A stretch of DNA of 58,218 nt, from positions 1 to 58,218 of IMG/VR virus record IMGVR_UViG_3300043538_000065. One strand, given 5' to 3'. This document shows positions 26,806 to 58,218 of this stretch, in pieces (position 1 is the stretch's first letter; the number at the start of each line of letters is the position of its first letter). Origin of the DNA: a virus (lineage: Duplodnaviria; Caudoviricetes). Both the position numbers and the translations under genes were made by a program. Under the pieces are notes generated by a model, which was not told the DNA's origin, did not search any database, and was given only the letters and a program-made list of their open reading frames with translations.

Positions 26806-27732
26806 TCAACGCATTAGCGAAACAAATTGTGCAAAGGCTTCCGACGGACGAACCACGCCGTCCGCAATTCCGGCAGCGACCGCATCGATACCTCTGAAAC
26901 ACTCAGCTTCTGTCGCCAGAGCCGCGTCCTTCGTCAACCGCGCCCCGCGGTAGCGACCAACGGCCGCTGCAAATTGCTCACGGCCCGCATCGAGCCGCTT
27001 CTGAATGCGGGCGGTCGTATCATCCGACAGCGCGGCGAACGGATTGCCTTCGGCCTTGAGCTTGCCTGACGACAACACGGTGACCTTGATGCCATCCTTC
27101 TCGAGCTGCTTGGAGTAGTCGACATGCATGGTGACGACGCCGATATTCCCGGCGTTGCCATTCTCCGGCAACACGATGTAGCGGCATGCGGACGCCAGGA
27201 GATAGGCCGCTGAAAGCGAATTGTCCGTCAGGATGGCAAGCGTCGGCTTGACCTTTGAGAGTTCGTAGACCGCCTCTGCGAGATCGTAGACGCCAGAACT
27301 ATCGCCGCCGAAACTATCCTGCTCAAACACCACGCCGCGCACTGAATTGGATCTCGCCGCAGCAGCGACACGGGTTTGCAAGCCTTCGTACGAAGTACTG
27401 CCGGAATAGGCGCCGAGGTAACTTCCCTTGTGGACCAGCGTTCCCTCGACGGGGATAACGGCGACATTCTCTACCCTGAACAGGGTATCGTCGGCGGCGT
27501 AGCCGTTCTGCTGTAGCCTCCGCATCAGCGGGTCACCGAGCCGCCCCATTTCATCGGATGCCCTGCCACTGGCAAAGGCGATGTGATCAATAGGCGCGCC
27601 GCCGCCGGACAATTCAACGCCGCCGTCGACAATGCGGCCGCCAATCCCCATCAGGATCGCTGCGGCCTTGCCGGGGTCTATCATCAGCGTCGAGTTGAAA
27701 ACCCGCGCCGCGATCTCAGGACGCAGGATCAT
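26806..27732 (-). CDS. Capsid maturation protease, S49 family (gpC-like)
   Basis: GTLVHKG, TSYEGL, DSFGG, SAAYLLAS. Confidence 0.93.
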   Translation of the reverse strand: MILRPEIAARVFNSTLMIDPGKAAAILMGIGGRIVDGGVELSGGGAPIDHIAFASGRASDEMGRLGDPLMRRLQQNGYAADDTLFRVENVAVIPVEGTLVHKGSYLGAYSGSTSYEGLQTRVAAAARSNSVRGVVFEQDSFGGDSSGVYDLAEAVYELSKVKPTLAILTDNSLSAAYLLASACRYIVLPENGNAGNIGVVTMHVDYSKQLEKDGIKVTVLSSGKLKAEGNPFAALSDDTTARIQKRLDAGREQFAAAVGRYRGARLTKDAALATEAECFRGIDAVAAGIADGVVRPSEAFAQFVSLMR

Positions 27733-29363
27733 TGACCGGGCCTCTTGTCGGCTGCGGCATCGGCCGCAGCATCATTGCCGGCGTCACTCGGATCGGGCAG
27801 GAGCCCGGATCCTGCCGAAAGTGTCCGGGTCAAACCGCGATCCTTCAGCATCGCTTCTTCGCGCGCAATCTGATCGAGCGTTTCCTCGAGATCGCCGCCC
27901 TGGTCGGCACATTCCGTCTCGAGCGTCGCGGTCATGTTTCCCATGCGCAGCCCCGCGCCCTGCGCTTCCTTGACCGGGTCGACATAACCACGGCCGGGAC
28001 CTATCCATCGCCCGCGCAGATAAGCGCCGGGCATGTCCCAGAAATCCGGAAGGCCTTTCGGAGCGACAATGTAACCTCGATCGAAGGCTTCTTCGATCAC
28101 GGCAAGGCGAATTGGATCCGCGACCTGCTCGGTAAAGGCGGAGAAGATCGTCATAATGTGCCGCCAGACCTCATTCAGGGCCGCGCGAGCCGACGAATAG
28201 TTGACCATCGACCAATCCATCGACAACTGCTCATAGGAAACGCCAAGCGCCGCGGCGATCGACTGCAGGAACGCGGACTGGAACTTCGGAAAGGAGACGG
28301 TGCTACGCGTCGCATTATTGATCTGGATCTCATCGCCAACCGGCATCACTGGAATCCGGACGCCGTTGAGCATCGCCGGAAACTTCTCGTAATGGTCGAG
28401 CCGCTTATCGGCGTAGGTCAGCGTCTGTGGTGTAAACGCCTGGTTGACGGCATCGACCGGCAGCGACGACTTGACGAAGGCCGCGAACAGTGCATTCACC
28501 ATCGCGGATGCCAGTTCGGTATCGGCGAACTTGCCGATCATTCGCATGCGCTGCATCAGCGCCGCGAACGGCGTGATGGCACGGGCCTGATCTTCGCGAT
28601 CGGGCTCGAAGCCATGGATGAAAACCGGCCTGCCCCAGCTCGTGCTGCGCGGGATCCTCGTCCAGGTCAGCGCATTCGGACGGATATCATACCAGTCGCT
28701 CGGATGGCCGTTGCGGACGTGATAGGCTATCGGCTCGCCATCATCGTCGAACTCGACGCCGGCGCGCATCGTCGCCGTTGTGGCGGCGCCATTTGGTTGC
28801 GAAAGGCGATCGGGATCGATGGCGCGGACGCAGGTGGAATAGCGGCCGCGATTTTTCCAGCCGAGAGAGGCTGTCGTCTCACCGTTGATGACCCATGTCC
28901 GGCACAGCAGCCGGAACATCCCGTTCATCGAAAGCCGTCGCTGCGCGTCGCAGCGACGCAACGGATCATTGGCGAAGGTACGCCATTCGGCTTCCATCGC
29001 TTCGCCAAGCTCACGGGCTATCTTCGCGTCTTTCTTTTTCGACGGGCTCAAGCCGAGCGCCCGCATGTCGGGCTTCGAGGAAGAACGAAGGCCAGCACCG
29101 ATCAGCATGTCGACCAGTTTTGCGACGCCGGCCACGGCGTGCGGATCGTTGCGCACCAGGTCGCGGACCCGCGCAATCGAAAGATCGCGGTTCGGAAGGA
29201 TGGCAGCATCGGCCGATGCGCTGAACGGCCGCCATGCGGCCATTTCCTGCGAATGATAAGACCCGGACCTGTACGCCGTCGGCCAAAACGCTTCGGCGCG
29301 GATGCCGGCGATGTAGGACGCCGGCACCGGCGTGCCGCTAGGATCGAGGACCGCAGTCGTCAT
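27729..29363 (-). CDS. Portal protein, lambda family
   Basis: RDLVRND, GVSYEQLSMD..VNYSSAR, YVDPVKE. Confidence 0.96.
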   Translation of the reverse strand: MTTAVLDPSGTPVPASYIAGIRAEAFWPTAYRSGSYHSQEMAAWRPFSASADAAILPNRDLSIARVRDLVRNDPHAVAGVAKLVDMLIGAGLRSSSKPDMRALGLSPSKKKDAKIARELGEAMEAEWRTFANDPLRRCDAQRRLSMNGMFRLLCRTWVINGETTASLGWKNRGRYSTCVRAIDPDRLSQPNGAATTATMRAGVEFDDDGEPIAYHVRNGHPSDWYDIRPNALTWTRIPRSTSWGRPVFIHGFEPDREDQARAITPFAALMQRMRMIGKFADTELASAMVNALFAAFVKSSLPVDAVNQAFTPQTLTYADKRLDHYEKFPAMLNGVRIPVMPVGDEIQINNATRSTVSFPKFQSAFLQSIAAALGVSYEQLSMDWSMVNYSSARAALNEVWRHIMTIFSAFTEQVADPIRLAVIEEAFDRGYIVAPKGLPDFWDMPGAYLRGRWIGPGRGYVDPVKEAQGAGLRMGNMTATLETECADQGGDLEETLDQIAREEAMLKDRGLTRTLSAGSGLLPDPSDAGNDAAADAAADKRPGQ

Positions 29364-29381
29364 GCTGTTTCAGGTTTCCGG

Positions 29382-29597
29382 TTAAAAGATAAAACCGACG
29401 GCGCCGCGCGGCGATCGTCCGGCAACCTTCGCCTCGAGCTCGGCAATGTAGGCATCCAGCCTGTCGGCATTCGCCGCCGTGAACTTGGTTCGCTGCTGGC
29501 CTCCGGCGCCGCCGAAGTCGCATTCGACAATGCCCTGCCCCATCAGCAACTGATGGCGCGCTACGCGGGCGGCATCGAGCATCTCCTGGTCGGTCAT
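29382..29597 (-). CDS. gpW-like head completion protein
   Basis: A.HQLLMG...L.AYIAELE; between terminase and portal. Confidence 0.85.
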   Translation of the reverse strand: MTDQEMLDAARVARHQLLMGQGIVECDFGGAGGQQRTKFTAANADRLDAYIAELEAKVAGRSPRGAVGFIF

Positions 29598-29599
29598 GA

Positions 29600-29800
29600 T
29601 CAGAAGCGCCTCAACCCAACCGCTGCGATGTCTTCATCTTCAAGAGCGCTCAGAATGTCGCGTTGGTATTGCGGAACCAACTGATCGTAAGGGGTGTGAA
29701 ACACCGCCGCTATCTGGCGCAGGTTTTTTCTCTGAAACTGCTCAAACAGCAGATCAGTTGGCCCGGGTGTTTGCGGTTTTCGTATCGTGCGATCATCCAT
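29600..29800 (-). CDS. Small hypothetical protein resembling a portal segment
   Basis: 66 aa ORF tightly packed between terL and gpW. Confidence 0.55.
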   Translation of the reverse strand: MDDRTIRKPQTPGPTDLLFEQFQRKNLRQIAAVFHTPYDQLVPQYQRDILSALEDEDIAAVGLRRF

Positions 29801-33608: not shown

Positions 33609-34286
33609 CTAAGCGGCTAATTGCAACGCATTACGCAGTGTCTGATTCCGTCCCTCCTCGTCAAGCTTAATCAGACTGTCTTGGAAGGCTGACCAAGACC
33701 TGCATGCAACGACCTCGTTGTTCCGCTCCCACTCGGCGCGCGCTAACTCATAGGCCCGCTTCTGCTTGTGGGTCAATCGGCCCTTTTTCGGCGGAGCGAT
33801 TTCTTCCGGGATCATCACTGCAGGCAAAGGGCGCTCACGGTTTTCCACAGCTCTTATCTGATCAATCATGGCGTCGCTGATCACGGCGGGCCGTTTCCTT
33901 CCCCCGGCAGTGTCCACGTACATAATCCGCGACACGCCTGGAATGCTTTCGATTCGACGCTTATGCGCGAGAATGTCCCAGACAAAAACGAAGATGTAGC
34001 CCCGGAACATCAGCCGTGTGACGTCGACCCCACGGCCGCGGCGGATGATGGTTTCTTCGGTCTCGGGCACGAACATGCCAAAGCGCCGGGCTACCAGATG
34101 CGCGGCGGCCGTCCGTTCGCTGTTCGGATGTGCTTCGATCACATGCCATTGCGGCACGGCGCCGGCCACAATTTCAGCCAAACGCTGATTGCCCGGCGTG
34201 TAATCCACGATATCGCCGATGGCAAGATCGCCTCGAAGAGCCGACCGTACCTGTTCCAAATTCCCTTTTTCCACTGCCATCAGCAT
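33609..34286 (-). CDS. NusG-family (RfaH/LoaP-like) late antiterminator
   Basis: WHVI...PNSE..AA.HL, LMFRGYIFV, IPGVSRI; occupies the Q position. Confidence 0.88.
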   Translation of the reverse strand: MLMAVEKGNLEQVRSALRGDLAIGDIVDYTPGNQRLAEIVAGAVPQWHVIEAHPNSERTAAAHLVARRFGMFVPETEETIIRRGRGVDVTRLMFRGYIFVFVWDILAHKRRIESIPGVSRIMYVDTAGGRKRPAVISDAMIDQIRAVENRERPLPAVMIPEEIAPPKKGRLTHKQKRAYELARAEWERNNEVVACRSWSAFQDSLIKLDEEGRNQTLRNALQLAA

Positions 34287-35908: not shown

Positions 35909-35989
35909 ACCGCACCGGAATTGTACGCTTTAGGGGTTGACTACTATGAATAGTCATAATAGGTTACCTCCATAAAGCAGGGGTTTCAG

Positions 35990-36916
35990 ATGACTTCGAT
36001 TGTGAGCGTTTACCGTCGCTGGCCGACACGGGCCGATTGCATCCGGCATATGGAGGAAGTGCGATGGGGCGATAAGCCGATCTGCCCCTACTGCGGAGCA
36101 GATCGCGTCTCGCGCAACCGCGACGACAGCCGCGGAGCGACGGCGGAACGCTGGAAATGCCAACGCTGCATCAAGTCGTTTTCGGTCACGGTCGGAACGA
36201 TCTTCCACAACACGCATGTCGATTTGCAGCGCTGGTTTTTGCTGATCTCGCTCATGATGTGCGCGAAGAAGGGACTGAGCGCGATGCAGGCGGCGCGCGA
36301 TCTGGAAATGCGCCGCCCTACCGTGTGGAGCATGATGCATCGCATCCGCGCCGCGATGAAGGATGACGGCGAATTGCTGTCCGGCCTTGTCGAAATGGAC
36401 GAAGCGTTTATCGGAGGCAAGCCGCGCAAGGGCACGCGCAAGGACATGGACGATGACGGCCCGCGCGATCCCGGCTCTAAGACGCCAGTGGTCGCCGCAA
36501 TCCAGCGTGGCGGCAAGGTAAAGGCCCGCGTGATGAAACGGTCGGAGTTGAACGCCAACGTGTTCAAGGCGCTGGTGTACAACTGGATGAAGCAGCGCGA
36601 GACCGTGCTGACAACCGACGAACTGCCGAGCTATCGCAACCTTGCCGACGTGATTCCGCACCGCATGATAAATCACTCCCGTCGCTATTCGCAGAAAGAT
36701 GCGACCTTCGATCTTGGTTTCGGCATGACGCACACCAATACGATTGAGGCGTTCTGGTCCATCGTGCGCCGCGCGATCATGGGGCAGTTCCACCACGTCA
36801 GTCAGAAATACCTGCCGCTGTACATGCGAGAGATTTGCTACAGGTATAACGACCGTATCGACCAATGCGGCTTGGACGGCGTGCTGAATTTGGCGTGCAA
36901 CGGGCGTCAAGGCTGA
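35990..36916 (+). CDS. IS1595-family (ISXO2-like) DDE transposase
   Basis: CPYCG..WKCQRC Zn ribbon, GTIFH.T, VEMDE, TDE, HTNTIE.FW. Confidence 0.95.
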   Translation: MTSIVSVYRRWPTRADCIRHMEEVRWGDKPICPYCGADRVSRNRDDSRGATAERWKCQRCIKSFSVTVGTIFHNTHVDLQRWFLLISLMMCAKKGLSAMQAARDLEMRRPTVWSMMHRIRAAMKDDGELLSGLVEMDEAFIGGKPRKGTRKDMDDDGPRDPGSKTPVVAAIQRGGKVKARVMKRSELNANVFKALVYNWMKQRETVLTTDELPSYRNLADVIPHRMINHSRRYSQKDATFDLGFGMTHTNTIEAFWSIVRRAIMGQFHHVSQKYLPLYMREICYRYNDRIDQCGLDGVLNLACNGRQG

Positions 36917-48935: not shown

Positions 48936-49100
48936 CTACCGCCCCGCCCGCTTGTGGATCCTGAGATCGTCCGGCGCGCGCAGATGCGCGACCAAGGCCG
49001 CGCCCAACAGCAGCGCCAGCATCACGGCAATGCCCATCAATGGCGTCCGCAGGTCGCCGAACAGGTCCAGTCCGTCGAGGTCGATGGCGAGCGGCATCAT
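48936..49100 (-). CDS. Small TM protein
   Basis: ATGA coupling; one TM. Confidence 0.5.
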   Translation of the reverse strand: MMPLAIDLDGLDLFGDLRTPLMGIAVMLALLLGAALVAHLRAPDDLRIHKRAGR

Positions 49101-49318
49101 GTGCTCCACATTCCCTTGAGGTAGCGGAAGACGAACGCGGGCCATCCTGCGATCATCGCCAGGGTCGCCAGCACCATCCGGATACGCACTGCCGTCATCT
49201 GCGATCTTGCAGCAAAGGTGTTGTCGACGATGCCAAGCCCACCGAGCACGAGCCAAAGCACCCCGCCGATCGACAGGTAGACCAGCGCTGGCGTGATGAG
49301 GTCGTCGGGTGACATCAT
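49097..49318 (-). CDS. Small two-TM protein
   Basis: ATGA coupling; hydrophobic segments. Confidence 0.6.
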   Translation of the reverse strand: MMSPDDLITPALVYLSIGGVLWLVLGGLGIVDNTFAARSQMTAVRIRMVLATLAMIAGWPAFVFRYLKGMWST

Positions 49319-49677
49319 GGAAACGATCCTCCATCACGACTGTCGGAATCGTCGCCGTCGAAGCCATCATCTTCATCGTCGCCGTGGTCGCGATATGGAA
49401 TCGCGGGCGTGTAGGATCGCTCCGCGTAATTCATGACGGTCTTTTCGTCCGTCACGGTGTAGGAGAAAATCGACGAGCCGCCGTAGTAATGGCTGGACCA
49501 GGTCACCTCGTTCGGAGCGGCGATCTTCGGAACATCGATGCGCAGCATCTTGGCGCCGAAGCGCTCTTCCTCCCGGGCCTTGCCGACGTGGCGGCGATGG
49601 CCGAATATCTCGACAATGGCCCATTCCCAGGTTTCGGTTTCTGGCGTCGGGGCAGCGATATCGGCAGGTTCGGACAT
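49315..49677 (-). CDS. Conserved phage hypothetical protein
   Basis: WAIVEIFGHRR..G...E....G...LRIDVP...YGGSSIF. Confidence 0.75.
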   Translation of the reverse strand: MSEPADIAAPTPETETWEWAIVEIFGHRRHVGKAREEERFGAKMLRIDVPKIAAPNEVTWSSHYYGGSSIFSYTVTDEKTVMNYAERSYTPAIPYRDHGDDEDDGFDGDDSDSRDGGSFP

Positions 49678-49796
49678 CGGACGCGTTCCACTTTTTTCGA
49701 GACAAAACTTCTCACGCTCGGAAACGACCGGGCGCGCGGCAGATCGGCGATACGCAAGGGGAAGCAACTGGAACGCGGGGAACTTAAAAAGACGCG

Positions 49797-49943
49797 TTAG
49801 CGAGGCAACGGGACCTCGCGGATGTGAGAGATGGCGCGCGCCGGGACGCGGCGCGGCTGGATCATGGCGACGGCGATGCACAGCAGGAACGCCAGACCGA
49901 GCAGGATGGGCGAGATGGCGTCCAGGAATGCGAGGAGCGTCAT
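49797..49943 (-). CDS. Small TM protein (48 aa)
   Basis: ATGA coupling; translated manually. Confidence 0.5.
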   Translation of the reverse strand: MTLLAFLDAISPILLGLAFLLCIAVAMIQPRRVPARAISHIREVPLPR

Positions 49944-50188
49944 GGCCGGTACTTCCTCTCGACGCGCAACGGCTTGTTGTCGTGGCCGCGCAGCGCGTAA
50001 GCCTGCACGAAGCCATCAAGGCTCGCCCGGGTCAGGAAAATATCGCCGTCGTCATTTTGCAAAAGGCGCAGTCCGCTGTGCTTGGCCCCGGCGTCGATAT
50101 GCCAAAGGCCTCCGCACTTGCCGGCGTCCGCCATCCTCATACGGACAACACGCTTGTGTCTGTTTCTCGAGGGATGCTTCGCTGTCAT
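49940..50188 (-). CDS. Hypothetical protein
   Basis: GGAGGGCGGC-ATGA start. Confidence 0.55.
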   Translation of the reverse strand: MTAKHPSRNRHKRVVRMRMADAGKCGGLWHIDAGAKHSGLRLLQNDDGDIFLTRASLDGFVQAYALRGHDNKPLRVERKYRP

Positions 50189-50403
50189 GCCGCCCTCCGC
50201 GTTCGGCGGCGCTTTGGCATGATGCGCCATTCAAGTCCCAAGGCTTCAAGCAACTGGGCCGGCGGGTTGCTTTTGCCGGACAAGAAGGTGCTAACGTTCC
50301 CATCATGGACGGCGTGCGCTACACACCAGGCGCGCATTCCTCCTCGACTTCGATACGGCGCGCTCTTGCGAAGAAGCAGCCTGCGAACCTGGTTCAGGGT
50401 CAT
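50185..50403 (-). CDS. Small XRE-like HTH protein
   Basis: MRAWC..H.V..GNVS.FLSGK..P...LLEALGL. Confidence 0.7.
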   Translation of the reverse strand: MTLNQVRRLLLRKSAPYRSRGGMRAWCVAHAVHDGNVSTFLSGKSNPPAQLLEALGLEWRIMPKRRRTRRAA

Positions 50404-50573
50404 GCCGCCCTCCCCTCAGCCGATGATCTCGGCATAGACCGCAAGGGCTGCACGCGCGTTCGGCTTGCGTTTGCCTTCGATGAGAGTTGTGGATGCCCGC
50501 CGAACGAGACTTGCGGCCCGGTCGGCGGGCGGTCTCCACTGGGAGTCTTGCAAACACCCCACGGAGAAAATAG
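50400..50573 (+). repeat. Cassette leader copy 1 (junction, promoter, two hairpins)
   Basis: About 75 bp nearly identical to 50966-51041, then structurally conserved hairpins. Confidence 0.9.
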
Positions 50574-50891
50574 ATGCCGCAACGCTTTGATGAGACTATA
50601 GAAGAATTCGGTCAGCGTCGCATAAAAGAGGCAGAGCAAAATCAGCAACGCGCAACAAGACTTCACGAATTTGCCGTTGAGCCCAAAGACCTCTACGCAG
50701 ATGCCGTAACGTTCCACGAGGATCGTGGCGTTCTCCGCATCGGCTTCCATTGCACCCGACCGGAAAGTGCCGACGCTATCGGTTACCCTACCGTCCCCGT
50801 CGCGCGCGTCTCCTTCCACTTCAAGATGTTCAAGCACTACTTTGAGACATGGCTCCAAACGGAGGCCGGCCGCGACGCGCTGACGGAGTAA
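50574..50891 (+). CDS. Counter-oriented cargo gene 1, hypothetical
   Basis: GGAG RBS; globular 105 aa (LYADAV...VLRIGF...PVARV). Confidence 0.75.
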   Translation: MPQRFDETIEEFGQRRIKEAEQNQQRATRLHEFAVEPKDLYADAVTFHEDRGVLRIGFHCTRPESADAIGYPTVPVARVSFHFKMFKHYFETWLQTEAGRDALTE

Positions 50892-50965
50892 GCCACGCCA
50901 GAATGCAGGTCGCAGAACCGGGTCCATCGGCATGATCGCAAGATAGGGCGGGTGCCTCAGCACGA

Positions 50966-51145
50966 TCATGCCGCCCTCCGATCAGCCGATGATCTCGGCA
51001 TAGACCGCAAGGGCTGCGCGGGCGTTCGGCTTGCGTTTGCCGACCTCGCGGCATTGTGTGTTGATTGCCCGCCGGGCGAGCCTTGCGACTCACCCGGCGC
51101 GCGGTCTTCGATGGGAGTTGCAACACAACCATCGGAGCTAAAATC
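50966..51145 (+). repeat. Cassette leader copy 2
   Basis: Partner of 50400-50573. Confidence 0.9.
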
Positions 51146-51433
51146 ATGAACACGATCAGTGCAACCGGCATCGGCTGGTACAACCGCGAGGACTATCCGC
51201 GCATTCTCGAGATCATGGAGGATGCGGATGTCCTGCCGACGACCTACGATACTTGGCGCCAGAAAGCCGAGGGCTTGGAACGCCAGATCAAGGCGAGCGG
51301 GGCAATTGTGGTCCGCGCCGTAATCGAGCCAAAGGAGTTCGTCGCCTGGTGCGCTGCGCGCGGTCTGAAGGTCAACGCCAAGGCACGCACCGCATTCGGC
51401 TCCGAATGCGCCTACCGGAAGATCAACCCCTGA
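51146..51433 (+). CDS. Counter-oriented cargo gene 2, hypothetical
   Basis: GGAG RBS; 95 aa (WYNREDY...LP.TYD.W...AE...F.AWC...G...AR..F). Confidence 0.8.
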   Translation: MNTISATGIGWYNREDYPRILEIMEDADVLPTTYDTWRQKAEGLERQIKASGAIVVRAVIEPKEFVAWCAARGLKVNAKARTAFGSECAYRKINP

Positions 51434-51466
51434 GACCTGTACGGCAATCATGGGGCGCTCCTGATC

Positions 51467-51730
51467 TCAGCCGATGCGCGCGAAGATGTCGGCAAAGACT
51501 GCGTACACAGCCCGGTCCGGCACGCGAGACGTGCCCTTAAGCCAGCGCTTCGCCGTGCTTTTGTCCTTGCCGGTGGCGTCCGCGAGGAACTGCTCGGTCT
51601 TGCAAGGCGCGGCGAACTTGGCGAGATCGGAGAAGGAAATTCTCTTATCCACAGGGCATATTTTTTTGGGTTCATATTTGAACCCTCGCGGATTTGACAA
51701 CCGCCGCGTGTAACCCCTTGATTCCACCAT
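51467..51730 (-). CDS. CII-position HTH protein
   Basis: LADATGKDKSTAKRWLKG HTH; downstream of cro. Confidence 0.65.
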   Translation of the reverse strand: MVESRGYTRRLSNPRGFKYEPKKICPVDKRISFSDLAKFAAPCKTEQFLADATGKDKSTAKRWLKGTSRVPDRAVYAVFADIFARIG

Positions 51731-51989
51731 GACGCACCCCCGCACGCAAAAACGAACTCCGGTTGCAACCCGCGCGATCTACATGCTACGTTCCGTTTGT
51801 AGCCAGTCCGTAGTGCAACTTCACGCTGGTACAGTTGCGTTTCTCGCACATGACGACAGACGCGCGAAGCAAGCGAAAATCTCACACTTCGCGAAATATT
51901 TTCCGTTAGTGCAAAACCAGACGATGTGCTTGCCTGCCCCTTTAGTCGTAGGGGCTGGGAATGGACAATGTGGTTCGCTTCCCGCGGCG

Positions 51990-52232
51990 TCATGTCGGGA
52001 CTTCCTCGGATACTTTAGCTGCCAGCCGGGTCAAGATTTCAGCAGTCAATCCGGCAGACTTGGCCGTTTCCGTCGTCAGAAGCCGCTCCCACCATTCGGA
52101 CGGGATAGTGTCTCGCTTGAACCACTTGCGCACGACCGAACCGTCATTGATCCCCAACTCGGCCGCCATCGCCTCGCGGGAGCGCCACAAGTCGATGATT
52201 GAGCGGAATGAGGTGGGCACAGAATCAGTCAT
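51990..52232 (-). CDS. Cro-like protein, probably leaderless
   Basis: IIDLW.S...MAAELG.....VRKW.KRD.IP..WW; divergent from repressor. Confidence 0.8.
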   Translation of the reverse strand: MTDSVPTSFRSIIDLWRSREAMAAELGINDGSVVRKWFKRDTIPSEWWERLLTTETAKSAGLTAEILTRLAAKVSEEVPT

Positions 52233-52239
52233 GCCCGAA

Positions 52240-52316
52240 GTATTGGGACATAACGTCCCGATTTGCAAGGGCATCATGGTACGGGACAGAAAATCTCCTG
52301 TGGGACATTCTGGCCC
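52240..52316. promoter_or_regulatory. OR-like region: three operators and cro promoter
   Basis: GGGAC-N5-GTCCC-like sites at 52245, 52283, 52302; TTGCAA-N17-CAATAC on minus strand. Confidence 0.8.
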
Positions 52317-52317
52317 T

Positions 52318-52632
52318 ATGGGAAAAGACTACGAAAAACTGTCCGACAGCGATTGGCGTTCGCGGTTCCAAGAACGACTTAACCGCATTCAAGGCAAGCG
52401 GAGCCACGACGCCATGGCTGATATTCTCGGTATGTCAGTCGAGAGCTGGAAGAAGTGCGTCAATAGAGGTGACAGTTTTCCGCTTCGGAGGTTGCCTAAA
52501 CTTGCCTCCCTCGCTGGAATCCCCATCGAAAGCCTGATCAAGGGTGACAGAGACGACGAACTCCCAGCTCCGGTGGAGCGATATCGGCAGCGAACAATTC
52601 AGTCGAAGACCGGCACCCGACGAACGGGCTAG
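52318..52632 (+). CDS. CI-like XRE repressor without peptidase domain
   Basis: HTH MADILGMSVESWKK; divergent from cro. Confidence 0.8.
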   Translation: MGKDYEKLSDSDWRSRFQERLNRIQGKRSHDAMADILGMSVESWKKCVNRGDSFPLRRLPKLASLAGIPIESLIKGDRDDELPAPVERYRQRTIQSKTGTRRTG

Positions 52633-52645
52633 CTAGTGAGCGCAA

Positions 52646-52969
52646 ATGAACCGCACCTTTTATCTCTTACTGGCGACGGCGACGCTCGCAATATCTCCCG
52701 CTCACACACAGGAGGCGGGCGTTAAGCTCCCTTATGCCGCATGCATAACCGAGGAAGCCTTTAAGAAATTTGACGATATACGCCGATCTGGTGACCGCGA
52801 GGCCCTCGAAAAATATTATATGGCCTCAGCCTTGGCCGGCGTTTGTTTGCCGCTCAAAGTTGGCCAGCGCGTCTTCAAGGAGGGTCTTGGCCAAGGCTTT
52901 GCGATCATAAAGATTCGGCCCAAAGGCATGTTCCAGAGCTATTTCACCTACGATATGGTGGTTGAGTAA
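52646..52969 (+). CDS. Exported protein downstream of repressor (possible superinfection exclusion)
   Basis: Signal peptide; follows cI. Confidence 0.7.
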   Translation: MNRTFYLLLATATLAISPAHTQEAGVKLPYAACITEEAFKKFDDIRRSGDREALEKYYMASALAGVCLPLKVGQRVFKEGLGQGFAIIKIRPKGMFQSYFTYDMVVE

Positions 52970-53021
52970 CGAGTGAGCGGGCCTATAATGAGGCCCAGTT
53001 CCAAAATGTAATTTTCTTCTT

Positions 53022-53064
53022 GGGACAATTTGGCCTTGACTTCGGGACATTTTGTCCCGAATAT
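53022..53064 (+). promoter_or_regulatory. OL-like region: two operators and promoter
   Basis: GGGACAATTTGGCCT at 53022, GGGACATTTTGTCCC at 53044; TTGACT-N17-GAATAT. Confidence 0.8.
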
Positions 53065-53100
53065 GTTTCCCGTGAAACAACCTCACGGGAATCAGTTCAA

Positions 53101-53361
53101 ATGGCTGAGCCAGCCACCAAACCGCGCTTAGATGGTTTTGCGCCCGGCGCCCGTCCTATCTGTGTGTTTTGCAATGCACCTTGGTCGGACGACATGATCA
53201 AGGTGCTGGCGGAATCCGAGGTTGAAGTCGGGTACTACGGCGATCCCGAAGGCGTCGATACCATGGCGATTATCGACATCGCCTGCGCCGCATGCGAGCG
53301 GCTGATCTATCGCAAGGAATGCCGCGGCAACACGTTCAGTCAACTGACGGTGTTGAAATGA
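53101..53361 (+). CDS. Zn-binding hypothetical protein
   Basis: CVFC...CAAC; first gene after promoter. Confidence 0.7.
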   Translation: MAEPATKPRLDGFAPGARPICVFCNAPWSDDMIKVLAESEVEVGYYGDPEGVDTMAIIDIACAACERLIYRKECRGNTFSQLTVLK

Positions 53362-53378
53362 CCGCCGGCCCACCTGCT

Positions 53379-53873
53379 TCAGCCGTGTTTTTGCAGCCGC
53401 TCGACATGAAACGCGTCGAGCGAAGCAACAACCGCGCGCACGTTGGTCAAGTGACGCTTCAGGTCGGCCAGCCGAAGGGATGGCGCCATCTTGTAGCGGG
53501 GCAACAATGTCTCGGCGAAGGCGGCATCAATGCTCGGTTCGATCTGAGACCATGGAAAATCTTGGCTCTTTCCCACCGGTTGATGGGCGAGGCGATTTCG
53601 AACCGGAAGCAGTTTCTCGATCTTGGACTTGATCGCGTCCCATTCCTTGAGGTCGGCGTCTGCGGTCTCGCCGACGAGGCTCGCGTGCAAAAGCCCGTTC
53701 GTCAGTTCAAGCTGCCGCCACAGCGATCGTGTGTGGTAGTACGCGACGCCAGCAATAACGATGTGGGTGCGCATGCATGTCCAGCAGGTGAAAAGCAGCC
53801 TGTTGTCGACGTTCGCCCACTCCGCCACGCACATGCCGAGCCATCGGTAGAATTCGTCCACCTCATTTTCCAC
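53379..53873 (-). CDS. HEPN-like helical protein, counter-oriented
   Basis: RNRLAH (RxxxxH) motif; LG.....WA.VD N-terminus; GGAG RBS. Confidence 0.7.
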   Translation of the reverse strand: MENEVDEFYRWLGMCVAEWANVDNRLLFTCWTCMRTHIVIAGVAYYHTRSLWRQLELTNGLLHASLVGETADADLKEWDAIKSKIEKLLPVRNRLAHQPVGKSQDFPWSQIEPSIDAAFAETLLPRYKMAPSLRLADLKRHLTNVRAVVASLDAFHVERLQKHG

Positions 53874-53987
53874 GAACGTATCTCCATTGCCAGCAACACT
53901 GGGGATGCCAGGGCCGTCGCTGACCTCGAATCAGCGGCGGCCCGTCTTTTCATCTTACGTCCACATCAAACCTCGCGAGTAACAGTC

Positions 53988-56914: not shown

Positions 56915-57292
56915 ATGCCCCGCAAGCCCCTTGCCAGCCCTCAGGAACGCATCAAGATGCCCCGGGCGGTTGCCATCACCGGGGAAACCGAGCGCACGCT
57001 GCAGGCAGCGGCGGCGCGGGGCGATATCGAGGGCGCGGCAAAACCGTTCAAGTGCTGGACCTTCAATGAGGCCAAGCTGCGTGCCTGGCTCAAGGCCAAG
57101 GAGTCAAAGCCGTGTCGGAGAAACCTCGAGGAGGAAGAGGACCGCGGCGCGAGCCGGGCCACGTCTTCGACCGCGGCGGCATCAAATGGGCGCGGTTTCA
57201 GGTCGCCGGCAAAGAGTTCCGAGGAAGCCTATCAACGCGCGATGCAGGCGTTGCGAAGCGCAGAGCCAGCGAATGGCACCAGCGCGAGGTAG
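56915..57292 (+). CDS. Excisionase-like HTH protein
   Basis: ITG...RTLQ..A.RG.I.GA.K...WTF...L..W; precedes and overlaps int. Confidence 0.75.
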   Translation: MPRKPLASPQERIKMPRAVAITGETERTLQAAAARGDIEGAAKPFKCWTFNEAKLRAWLKAKESKPCRRNLEEEEDRGASRATSSTAAASNGRGFRSPAKSSEEAYQRAMQALRSAEPANGTSAR

Positions 57293-58218
57293 GCATCGCC
57301 AAATTCGGCGAAGACCGCAAAAGCTACCTCGACGTCTTTGCGGCATGGACGCTCCACATCGCAGACCAGGTCGGCACACAGACCCGCCGGCGATACGCAG
57401 TTTCATTGAAGATGCTGGAACCCTGGCTGAAGCCGCGGTTCTTCGACGAGATCGACCGCGAGCTGATCGGCACCATTGTGCGGGAGCGGCGCGCCAAGGG
57501 CATCACCACGGCCACCATCCGCCGCGACCTCACCGCGCTTTCATCGGTCATCGAATTCGCAATCGAGGAGGGCTGGCGGCCAGACGAAAGCAACCCCGCA
57601 TTGGCGCGGTTGAAGCGGCTGAAGGAACGCCGCGAGCCGATCGTGCTGCCCCTTGCCGAAGACATAGCGTATCTGATCGGCCGCGCGCCGGGCAACTTCG
57701 CGAAGATGATCGAGGCCGCTCGAGACTCCGGTTGCCGGCAGGACGAGCTAGCCAAGGCCGAGCGACGCCGCCTGGACCGCGATCGGCGGCAGCTGACGAT
57801 CCGACGCAAGGGCAACCAGGAGCGCACCATCAGCCTGCCGGACGCCGCCTGGGCGGTCATGAGCGCGATCCCTGCCCACCTGACCGGCAGGTGGCTGTTC
57901 TGGCACGGCAACGGCGAGCCCTACCGGAACGTCGCCGCCCGCTTCAACGAGCTGGTCAAGTCGGCACAAAAGGCGGCACAGAAAGAGGGCCGCGAGTTCC
58001 GCCCCTTCACGTTCCATCACCTGAGGCACTTCTACGCAGTCTGGTATTTGAAAAACGGCGGCAACATCTATGCCCTGCAACAGCATCTTAACCATAAGAG
58101 CATCACGACGACTGAGGGCTATCTGAAGTTCCTGACACCGGAGGAAGCCGCTGCGGCCAAGGCCGGTCCGTCACGAATCCCGGCACAGCCAGAGCGGTTT
58201 AGTGAAAAATCGACGTAG
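57112..58218 (+). CDS. int: Tyrosine integrase
   Basis: Catalytic R (GCRQDE), K, HHLRH, H (LNHKS), Y (TTEGY). Confidence 0.96.
   Translation: MSEKPRGGRGPRREPGHVFDRGGIKWARFQVAGKEFRGSLSTRDAGVAKRRASEWHQREVGIAKFGEDRKSYLDVFAAWTLHIADQVGTQTRRRYAVSLKMLEPWLKPRFFDEIDRELIGTIVRERRAKGITTATIRRDLTALSSVIEFAIEEGWRPDESNPALARLKRLKERREPIVLPLAEDIAYLIGRAPGNFAKMIEAARDSGCRQDELAKAERRRLDRDRRQLTIRRKGNQERTISLPDAAWAVMSAIPAHLTGRWLFWHGNGEPYRNVAARFNELVKSAQKAAQKEGREFRPFTFHHLRHFYAVWYLKNGGNIYALQQHLNHKSITTTEGYLKFLTPEEAAAAKAGPSRIPAQPERFSEKST

Follow-up and report, generated by a model that had tools for sequence, protein, structure and literature searches.

Two tandem, backward accessory-gene cassettes with a covarying two-hairpin leader and open antisense frames at the start of a provirus early operon

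Introduction

Prophage accessory genes are a main source of new host traits and of anti-phage functions, and how they settle in phage operons while leaving them unbroken is poorly described. Accessory gene units termed morons were reportedly defined for the temperate lambdoid phages HK97 and HK022. In integrons, an attC site with R''/L''–L'/R' boxes and a GTTRRRY core lies 3' of each cassette gene. In phage Mu com/mom, as with other leader hairpins, sequestration of the Shine–Dalgarno (SD) sequence exerts translational control, and ROSE elements and other RNA thermometers of Alphaproteobacteria are multi-hairpin 5' leaders whose final hairpin engages the SD, typically through a weak, mismatched stem. 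The present study concerns positions 50,395–51,451 of the IMG/VR provirus record IMGVR_UViG_3300043538_000065 (Duplodnaviria; Caudoviricetes), which was analysed complete (58,218 bp, hereafter the window). Here, two tandem units, each with a structured leader and one small plus-strand gene, face a minus-strand early operon. The explanation that we favour by a modest degree is that these are two moron-type cassettes, inserted in backward orientation immediately downstream of a cro-like gene, that hairpin 2 of each leader acts as a cis control, and that open, coupled 'shadow' frames run on the opposite strand. As a whole, this explanation sees in the record a temperate, myovirus-like prophage with a tightly coupled minus-strand early operon.

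The cassettes resemble morons in that an extra small gene lies between operon genes, is not found in close relatives (G002 and G004) and has flanks that vary among records. They differ from morons in lying backwards in a translationally coupled operon, in their covarying two-hairpin leader and in the open, coupled opposite frame; a sigma-70 consensus scan scored no promoter of their own, and the one plus-strand terminator-like site nearby is weak. Prophage accessory loci are treated in PMC7067206. Among the papers listed by full-text searches, none concerned backward morons bridged by antisense open reading frames (ORFs). The shadow-ORF bridge could be new in kind if experiments support it, and by analogy the leader cassettes otherwise appear to be like morons.

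The sequence-only reading of this DNA had proposed an integron-like expandable array. Like integron cassettes, the units are short, swappable and single-gene, carry imperfect palindromes in which pairing rather than sequence is kept, and stand two in tandem. Unlike integron cassettes, however, they carry the palindromes 5' of the gene, spaced constantly relative to the SD, have no IntI-type integrase or attI beside them, and occur elsewhere singly, with one strong copy in each of eight other records; the proposal therefore does not hold. A Pfam search that took in 17 ORFs near the cassettes and a further 41 elsewhere in the window gave no recombinase-like gene in 49300–53900, the only one being a Phage_integrase gene at 57112–58218. 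By eye, the loop word GTTGCAA of the leader fails the attC core GTTRRRY at its fifth letter, and the 3' flanks of the cassettes have no common palindrome.

As in Mu com/mom, a hairpin just upstream of the start would occlude the ribosome-binding site of a dispensable phage gene, and its exposed, conserved loop could bind an activator; unlike in that system, occlusion of the SD is predicted in only six of ten leaders, and no protein or RNA partner of the loop was found. The leader has in common with ROSE thermometers several hairpins with the final one on the SD, and departs from them in the GC-rich, 6–9-bp stem of hairpin 2 and in the outcome of the Rfam search, with no match at E ≤ 0.1 in eight leader loci.

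The locus offers a compact, strongly covarying leader family reused before unrelated genes, together with a clear statistical hint that the opposite strand of an insert is kept translatable so that the interrupted operon continues to work. If true, this would amount to a rule on the sites and manner in which coupled operons can accept backward genes, and would explain some of the long 'antisense ORFs' in GC-rich phages.

Results

Anatomy and conservation of the leader

The units at 50395–50576 and 50961–51148 share an initial block, which is followed by a two-hairpin leader reaching the start codon of a plus-strand gene. The leaders and genes are as follows.

50495..50530, plus strand: hairpin 1 of leader 1, GCCCGCCGA/TCGGCGGGC, a GC-rich clamp with a 9-bp outer stem
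50534..50566, plus strand: hairpin 2 of leader 1, in which CUCC pairs with GGAG (the SD, 50563–50566); loop AGUCUUGCAAACAC
50574..50891, plus strand: cargo gene 1, encoding a conserved hypothetical protein of 105 residues
51067..51102, plus strand: hairpin 1 of leader 2, GCCCGCCGGG/CCCGGCGCGC, with one C.C mismatch
51106..51137, plus strand: hairpin 2 of leader 2, in which CUUCGAUGG pairs with CCAUCGGAG; SD (51134–51137) in the 3' arm; loop GAGUUGCAACACAA
51146..51433, plus strand: cargo gene 2, encoding 95 residues, phrog_4753, of no known function

Both hairpins described in the sequence-only reading are present in both units, hairpin 1 with CTTGCG in its loops and hairpin 2 with TTGCAA in its loops and GGAG within its 3' arm. 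In alignment, the similarity between the units extends to both start codons (50574 and 51146), and a direct repeat of 53 nucleotides (nt) with 77% identity (50494–50546 versus 51066–51118) spans hairpin 1 and the start of hairpin 2. Throughout the family, the leader measures about 85 nt and consists of a long GC hairpin, a 3–6-nt spacer and a second hairpin with a GC-rich stem of 6–9 bp. The 5' arm of hairpin 2 reads CUCC, CUUC or CUAC (CUNC) and pairs with the GGAG ribosome-binding site, and the 14-nt loop is CA-rich and conserved, with a consensus near GGTTGCAACACCAA. The distance from SD to ATG is 7–9 nt, with the GGAG/AGGA core starting 11–12 nt 5' of the ATG in all ten leaders.

A first model (R1), built from unit 1, unit 2 and locus L085, was used to align seven non-window leaders by structure, and these seven, all from other records, constituted a second model (R2). 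R2 located both leaders of the window, that of unit 2 with a score of 64.9 bits (E 2.9e-10) and that of unit 1 with 36.4 bits (E 9e-5), and nothing else there reached E ≤ 0.1. Because R2 was built without the window copies and recovers both, the structure of the leader goes beyond chance.

Eleven distinct leaders were collected, namely the two of the window, L048 (= L049), L050, L051, L081, L082, L084, L085 (= L086 = L089), L092 and L127, and they precede three unrelated families. Cargo-1 relatives carry the leader in three genomes (L048 = L049, L050) and in a metagenome (L085 = L086 = L089). Among cargo-2 relatives, it is present at L051, the closest genomic relative, at three of the four IMG/VR relatives (L081, L082 and L084) and at L127, whereas the other 28 loci of that family inspected upstream (30–44% identity, chromosomal contexts) do not have it; R2 likewise gave no match at E ≤ 0.1 in the scanned loci of leaderless cargo-2 homologues. 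The third family is a 73-residue CxxC...CxxC protein (cargo 3, L092), unrelated to cargo 1 or 2. The R2 scans covered 151 + 151 + 19 sampled genomes, ten named records (five of them within the family sample) and the retrieved loci. In the family to which the Pseudolabrys genome belongs, 3 of 151 genomes gave a match (two already in the set and one new, L092); its order gave 0 of 151, and one genus gave 2 of 19, where L127 was the new match (35.5 bits). The sequence-only reading had raised the possibility that the leader occurs only with the two genes of this window; the same leader stands before a third gene family, and the catalogue of downstream genes that it had called for, from the cargo homologues and the R2 scans with their family and order samples, comprises three unrelated families.

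At L085, a leader resembling leader 2 of the window (78% identity) precedes a cargo-1 gene (77% nucleotide identity), indicating that leader and gene have been reshuffled. When the eight other leader-bearing records were re-scanned, each had one copy at E ≤ 0.01, one of them with an extra weak, overlapping match (E 0.03). The leader is kept while the flanks differ completely between records.

The statement that no named family is recognisable was borne out. In 49000–53000 of the window, three Rfam 15 matches were obtained at E ≤ 1, with 19–23.8 bits against gathering scores of 41–100, and the eight leader loci gave none at E ≤ 0.1. Simpler searches added no members. The exact hairpin-1 pattern had a single IMG/VR match (L008), inside a coding sequence and without the hairpin, and of 28 IMG/VR matches to the hairpin-2 loop pattern none was upheld by R2. 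A BLAST-type search with 50476–50580 against 401 genomes of the family returned only GC-rich matches of 17–53 nt (best E 9.5e-5 per genome), which were judged to be noise, and an nhmmer search with a two-sequence leader profile gave nothing below E 0.48. In a metagenome scan with the cargo-1 alignment, the upstream region of L088 differed and had no leader, and L087 begins inside the gene, without upstream sequence. The leader is thus a so far undescribed covarying family, reused before unrelated genes.

Covariation and strand of action

In the alignment of ten leaders, 91.5% of cells pair, compared to 67.6% in shuffles (0 of 500 shuffles reached the observed value), and sliding the partner by 1–3 columns as a control reduced pairing to 34–44%. 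Both sides change in 18 of the 22 base pairs, as illustrated by the hairpin-2 stems CGATGG/CCATCG, CGCTGG/CCAGCG, CATCGG/CCGATG, CGTCGG/CCGACG and CGTTGG/CCAACG. The claim that the stems differ and yet stay paired was thus confirmed by compensatory changes.

The predicted unpaired probability of the SD was at most 0.15 in six of ten leaders, with the start codon mostly open, and its mean was 0.24 in leaders versus 0.38 in 28 leaderless homologues (one-sided Mann–Whitney, p = 0.04). By eye, hairpin 1 lies between less than 20 nt (L051) and about 90 nt (window) from the minus-strand start that follows it. The fixed geometry relative to the plus-strand start, the pairing of CUNC with the SD, the SD values and the variable minus-strand distance together favour a role in the cargo mRNA, and these sequence features make cis action within the plus-strand transcript the likeliest mode for the leader. 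Hairpin 2 would keep translation initiation low until it is opened or its loop is bound, the CA-rich 14-nt loop would be exposed for a partner or for ribosome standby, and hairpin 1 would serve as a 5' GC clamp or stabiliser. With regard to the 'shared riboregulated leader' of the sequence-only reading, the leader is conserved, covarying and common to unrelated genes; the riboregulation, in the form of cis translational control, is suggested by the geometry and pairing of the SD.

Complementarity between the hairpin-1 apex and the hairpin-2 loop was noted in unit 2 (UUGCGACUC with GAGUUGCAA), L051 (GCAACU with AGUUGC) and L092 (GGCAACC with GGUUGCC). It is significant against shuffles in these three of the ten leaders and not in the other seven, and a loop–loop kissing contact may form in this subset. 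A plus-strand upstream ORF coupled to the cargo start was considered as well; it exists in unit 2 (65 codons, with its TGA overlapping the ATG) and in L048, is not found in most leaders and was rejected as a common mechanism.

Cargo genes

Cargo 1 and cargo 2, both on the plus strand, gave no BLASTP alignment with each other at E ≤ 100, in agreement with the description of unrelated small genes placed against the early operon. Each has eight homologues with 51–77% identity. Among 401 sampled genomes of the family, the cargo-2 family occurs in 35 and the cargo-1 family in three. Differences between the cargo genes of unit 1 and L085 number 13, 13 and 42 at codon positions 1, 2 and 3, respectively, and the GC content of third positions exceeds that of second positions (GC3 > GC2) in all ten cargo genes. 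The plus strand is thus the selected coding strand, and the candidate explanation of a real minus-strand gene in place of the cargo genes is ruled out by these codon-position statistics.

Cargo 2 matches phrog_4753 (E 1.5e-21), with residues 6–93 on profile positions 5–93 of 97, and neither cargo 1 nor cargo 2 has a Pfam or NCBIfam match. The PADLOC library of 2023 contains no family matching the three cargo proteins at E ≤ 0.01; given the age of the library, the defence or exclusion role suggested in the sequence-only reading may still apply. The structure predicted for cargo 2 has a predicted local distance difference test (pLDDT) score of 93; Foldseek found no match in the PDB at E ≤ 0.001 for cargo 1 or cargo 2. 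By structure alignment, the best match of cargo 2 was 2ox6_A, an uncharacterised Shewanella protein (Z 8.8, root-mean-square deviation 3.4, 84 residues aligned; the next at Z 4.2). The C-terminal half of cargo 1 gave weak PC4/Pur-alpha-like matches (Z 4.0–4.6, 48–55 residues aligned), and cargo 3 gave only matches below the cut-off, to small zinc-binding prophage proteins. In the protein atlas, the cargo proteins fall in unnamed clusters only. Single-sequence locus searches with the cargo 1 and cargo 2 proteins yielded no usable relatives, and the cargo-1 alignment found nothing in IMG/VR.

Open, coupled frames opposite the cassettes

On the minus strand, the codon-aligned antisense frame of each cassette forms a long ORF.

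50966..51451, minus strand: shadow ORF 2 (161 codons), the antisense frame in codon register with cargo 2, leader included; starts 13 nt past the cro stop behind the SD GGAGCG and ends by ATGA on shadow ORF 1
50400..50969, minus strand: shadow ORF 1 (189 codons), the antisense frame in codon register with cargo 1, leader included; an ATGA overlap at either end

The minus strand can be read as a chain of the cro stop, 13 nt with an SD, shadow ORF 2 (51451–50966), ATGA, shadow ORF 1 (50969–50400), ATGA and a 72-residue gene. In all ten cassettes, the codon-aligned antisense frame is stop-free through the gene and 99–216 nt of leader. The first stop is the TGA of an ATGA (TCAT on the plus strand) on the next minus-strand start in nine of the ten, L081 being the exception, and by eye the shadow start overlaps or closely follows the stop of the upstream gene in six of ten (unit 1, unit 2, L048, L050, L051 and L092). 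Among the 28 leaderless homologues, 16 are open within the gene, four are also open for at least 99 nt upstream, and four have the TCAT context. The base rate of antisense stops in 24 of the phage's own genes was 0.0109 per codon, at which a stretch of 140–190 codons would be expected to be open with a probability of about 0.12–0.22. No selection on the shadow proteins themselves was apparent.

The portal gene (27729–29363, minus strand) has no antisense stop in 544 codons and lies opposite a 650-codon plus-strand shadow ORF (27732–29684); such long ORFs arise without function in this phage. Openness of the gene body alone is thus weak evidence, and the weight of the argument lies with the leader portion and the ATGA ends.

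On these grounds, the shadow ORFs suggest that the early operon is kept translationally coupled. Early-operon ribosomes would cross the backward inserts without a gap by way of the ATGA-joined shadow ORFs. The simplest reading is that only those backward inserts survive that leave the early operon translatable and coupled, the anti-polarity purpose being our inference. More generally, and with tentative confidence, we propose that backward accessory genes in coupled phage operons are tolerated only with an open, ATGA-coupled shadow ORF, which would avoid Rho-type polarity and loss of coupling; that a cassette would be shaped by three codes at once (one for the cargo protein, one for the hairpins with the SD, and one for an opposite frame kept free of stops and ending on the next start); and that, as a new and portable module, the leader would control the translation of genes expressed in the lysogen.

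A gene of an IS1595-family transposase (35990–36916, plus strand) also lies backwards in the minus-strand operon. Its antisense frame (35954–36910, minus strand) is fully open over 318 codons, with no antisense-stop codon in 308, and this ORF begins at a TTG in a 4-nt overlap with the stop of the preceding minus-strand ORF. This insert could be a second 'bridged' backward insert or a mere GC-rich shadow ORF.

The repeated block consists of cro stumps

The sequence-only reading had noted a near-identical block heading both units, and the block was found as a direct repeat of 81 nt with 93% identity, 566 nt apart (50395–50475 versus 50961–51041). Its interpretation as a ~75-bp promoter block must be replaced: on the minus strand it reads as the 3' end of a cro-like gene with an SD/ATG junction, it is not seen at the other nine leaders (L127 included), and no sigma-70-like promoter was scored in 49700–52700. 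The parts of the block are given below.

50400..50415, minus strand: junction 1, SD GGAGGGCGG followed by ATGA
50416..50484, minus strand: cro stump 1, the last 22 codons, LIEGKRKPNARAALAVYAEIIG, and the stop
50966..50981, minus strand: junction 2, a copy of the SD GGAGGGCGG and ATGA junction
50982..51041, minus strand: cro stump 2, the last 19 codons, GKRKPNARAALAVYAEIIG, and the stop

Minus-strand translations of both copies finish with GKRKPNARAALAVYAEIIG and a stop codon, followed by the SD GGAGGGCGG and an ATG. A wobble-degenerate pattern for this peptide end found four IMG/VR loci and one genome locus, and in all five the peptide closes a small, intact cro-like ORF that is closely preceded by a palindromic operator-like site. 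All five intact-cro records align to bases 4–91 only of the 186-nt unit query, leaving the hairpin part unmatched, with 85–96% nucleotide identity of the block over 68–88 nt. The intact cro-like gene of the window (51467–51652) has a related end peptide and junction. The peptide end, the junction and the collinearity with intact genes thus identify both blocks as cro stumps of 22 and 19 codons with a copied SD/ATG junction.

Both stumps are without the 5' two-thirds of the cro gene, and stump 2 has in-frame stops upstream. Their breakpoints differ (50484 versus 51041), and each stump is 95–98% identical to the cro of other phages, compared to 93% between the stumps. In the cro-like proteins of relatives, the N-terminal parts vary while the last ~20 codons and the junction are near-identical, a pattern expected of a conserved recombination joint. 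In the proposed scenario, the 81-nt block, a cro-allele stump with its SD/ATGA junction, is no part of the leader device and would have been left behind when recombination took place at the conserved 3' end of cro. Re-reading of the block in this way reveals conserved gene ends acting as recombination joints and leaving stumps. The near-complete relatives G002 and G004, in which this cro allele is intact, had no leader on scanning, and the cassettes are regarded as inserts for this reason.

The junction word TCATGCCGCCCTCC (SD GGAGGGCGG with ATGA, minus strand) occurs at 50185–50198, 50400–50413 and 50966–50979, that is, three times within 800 bp at consecutive minus-strand ORF starts, and such repeated words could, from their sequence, provide short homologies for the gain or loss of units. 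In addition, a 10-nt inverted repeat, GGCATGATCG at 50929–50938 and CGATCATGCC at 50963–50972, flanks the 3' region of cargo 1; its first arm, GGCATGATCG, is common to the L085 cassette, where it lies at the first start codon of the L085 shadow ORF.

Discussion

Several observations weigh against the scenario of backward, cis-controlled and bridged cassettes. Occlusion of the SD is not universal, the predicted unpaired probability being 0.90 in L048 and 0.37–0.52 in three other leaders. The minus strand of the window leaders folds at least as well as the plus strand, with z-scores of -2.87 (unit 1) and -4.56 (unit 2) compared to -0.44 and -2.76, respectively, and folding energy by itself is weak evidence for structure. 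Covariation was counted on an alignment fitted to the model structure, which favours that structure, and kinship (unit 1/unit 2/L085; L048/L092; L051/L127) makes the number of independent lineages smaller than 11. Among 201 cells, 176 Watson–Crick pairs, 8 G.U on the plus strand, 10 A.C (equivalent to G.U on the minus strand) and 7 others were counted, giving no strand signal. Long shadow ORFs also lie over ordinary genes of this GC-rich phage. Finally, a scan for the sigma-70 consensus scored no promoter-like site on either strand in 49700–52700, and the 90 nt upstream of hairpin 1 have no motif common to the leaders. The only plus-strand terminator-like site near a cassette is a weak 5-bp stem at 51038–51053. 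A look-up of sequencing runs containing 49800–52300 listed no RNA run, and the one run with the complete interval was soil-metagenome DNA, which may be its source.

The lack of a conserved promoter upstream of hairpin 1 would fit a promoter inside the leader, with a -10 box overlapping the 5' arm of hairpin 2. RNAs begun there would lose this arm and be translatable, and read-through RNA would keep the hairpin and stay silent, a logic that is reportedly found in some phage T4 late genes. By eye, a TAYCNT box (TACCAT, TATCGT, TACGTT or TACCGT) lies between the hairpins in seven of 11 leaders (L048, L050, L051, L082, L084, L092 and L127), in two of them with TG two bases upstream, and one stem pair (columns 69/94) is U-A in seven of nine leaders while its neighbours covary. 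However, the box is not found in unit 1, unit 2, L085 and L081, which read TCTCCACT, TCTTCGAT, TCTTCGCT and GGCATCCC, matches to a -35 element are poor or none, and the scan of 49700–52700 scored no such promoter. The letters of the box can also be explained as the anti-SD arm, and an internal promoter is considered unlikely.

A function at the level of DNA, with hairpins folding in single-stranded or cruciform DNA and marking the cassettes for recombination or insertion, would make the leader a mobility site rather than an RNA. Such a site would account for the near-pure Watson–Crick pairing without strand bias (176 Watson–Crick, 8 G.U and 10 A.C), for one leader type with different genes, including leaders swapped between genes, and for cassettes at differing gene junctions across prophages. 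It would leave the fixed SD/ATG spacing and the anti-SD pairing without a reason, no recombinase lies beside the cassettes (the sole integrase is at the prophage end), the cassette ends that unit 1 and L085 have in common show no terminal repeats or target duplications, and the eight other leader-bearing records, when re-scanned, held a single copy each at E ≤ 0.01. A DNA-level signal is therefore improbable.

We regard with similar doubt the possibility that the hairpins act in the minus-strand early-operon transcript, as a processing or stability signal or by enforcing coupling before the next start. The z-scores are lower on that strand (-2.87 and -4.56 versus -0.44 and -2.76), hairpin 1 presents a GCAA tetraloop there, and in every case the leader occupies the 3'-terminal part of the shadow ORF, close to the ATGA junction that follows. 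Nevertheless, hairpin 1 and the minus-strand start after it are anywhere from <20 to ~90 nt apart while the plus-strand SD/ATG distance is fixed, the CUNC/GGAG pairing and the SD are meaningful on the plus strand only, and the counts of G.U versus A.C give the minus strand no favour.

A last alternative is that repeat and hairpins are functionless leftovers of duplication. In its favour, the cro stumps are indeed debris, and few genomes carry the leader (3 of 151 in the family sample, 0 of 151 in the order sample). Against it, 18 of 22 pairs are compensatory across ten leaders, R2 from other records recovers the window leaders, and the leader is conserved next to wholly different flanks. This alternative is very improbable.

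Prophage context

The preferred scenario of backward cassettes places the inserts in a genome with the following landmarks.

50185..50403, minus strand: early gene of 72 residues, with which the real minus-strand genes resume downstream of the cassettes; its ATG (50401–50403) overlaps the TGA of shadow ORF 1 as ATGA
51467..51652, minus strand: intact own cro-like gene, 61 residues from a GTG (start picked by eye), ending AVFADIFARIG and stop, directly downstream of a palindromic operator-like site
57112–58218: phage integrase (Phage_integrase, Pfam) at the prophage right end, ~6 kb from the cassettes

By Pfam, the minus strand carries terminase, portal, capsid, sheath and baseplate genes, three DNA methylases/helicase and a NusG-like gene. 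This layout of structural genes, with the integrase at the right end, indicates that the genome reads leftwards from an immunity region near 51.5–52.6 kb, and the cassettes occupy the very beginning of the leftward early operon. The named relatives, a Pseudolabrys metagenome-assembled genome with the cro block and a Bradyrhizobium record with a cargo-2 homologue, point to Hyphomicrobiales/Xanthobacteraceae, and the host of the prophage is probably a member of the Xanthobacteraceae.

The NusG-like protein (PF02357, E 4.4e-12; 33609–34286, minus strand) is encoded between the early and structural genes and hints at active management of termination or polarity by the phage. In the immunity region, the ORFs at 51990–52277 (minus strand) and 51961–52632 (plus strand) overlap on opposite strands and both look regulator-like: the former has a 'carph-isopro' domain match below the cut-off (E 1.1e-7), and the C-terminal part of the latter matches phage repressor phrogs (E 2.6e-4). 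By eye, an inverted repeat GGGTTCA-N4-TGAACCC at 51668–51685 (plus strand) is followed by TTGACA (51694–51699), a 17-nt spacer, CTTGAT (51717–51722) and an ATG whose first base, 51729, lies 7 nt past the box. From this arrangement, the site at 51668–51731 may be a divergent promoter giving a leaderless plus-strand mRNA opposite cro. The TTGAC-N17-YTTGAT-ATG layout is seen again, with variations, in five relatives (L003–L006 and L009).

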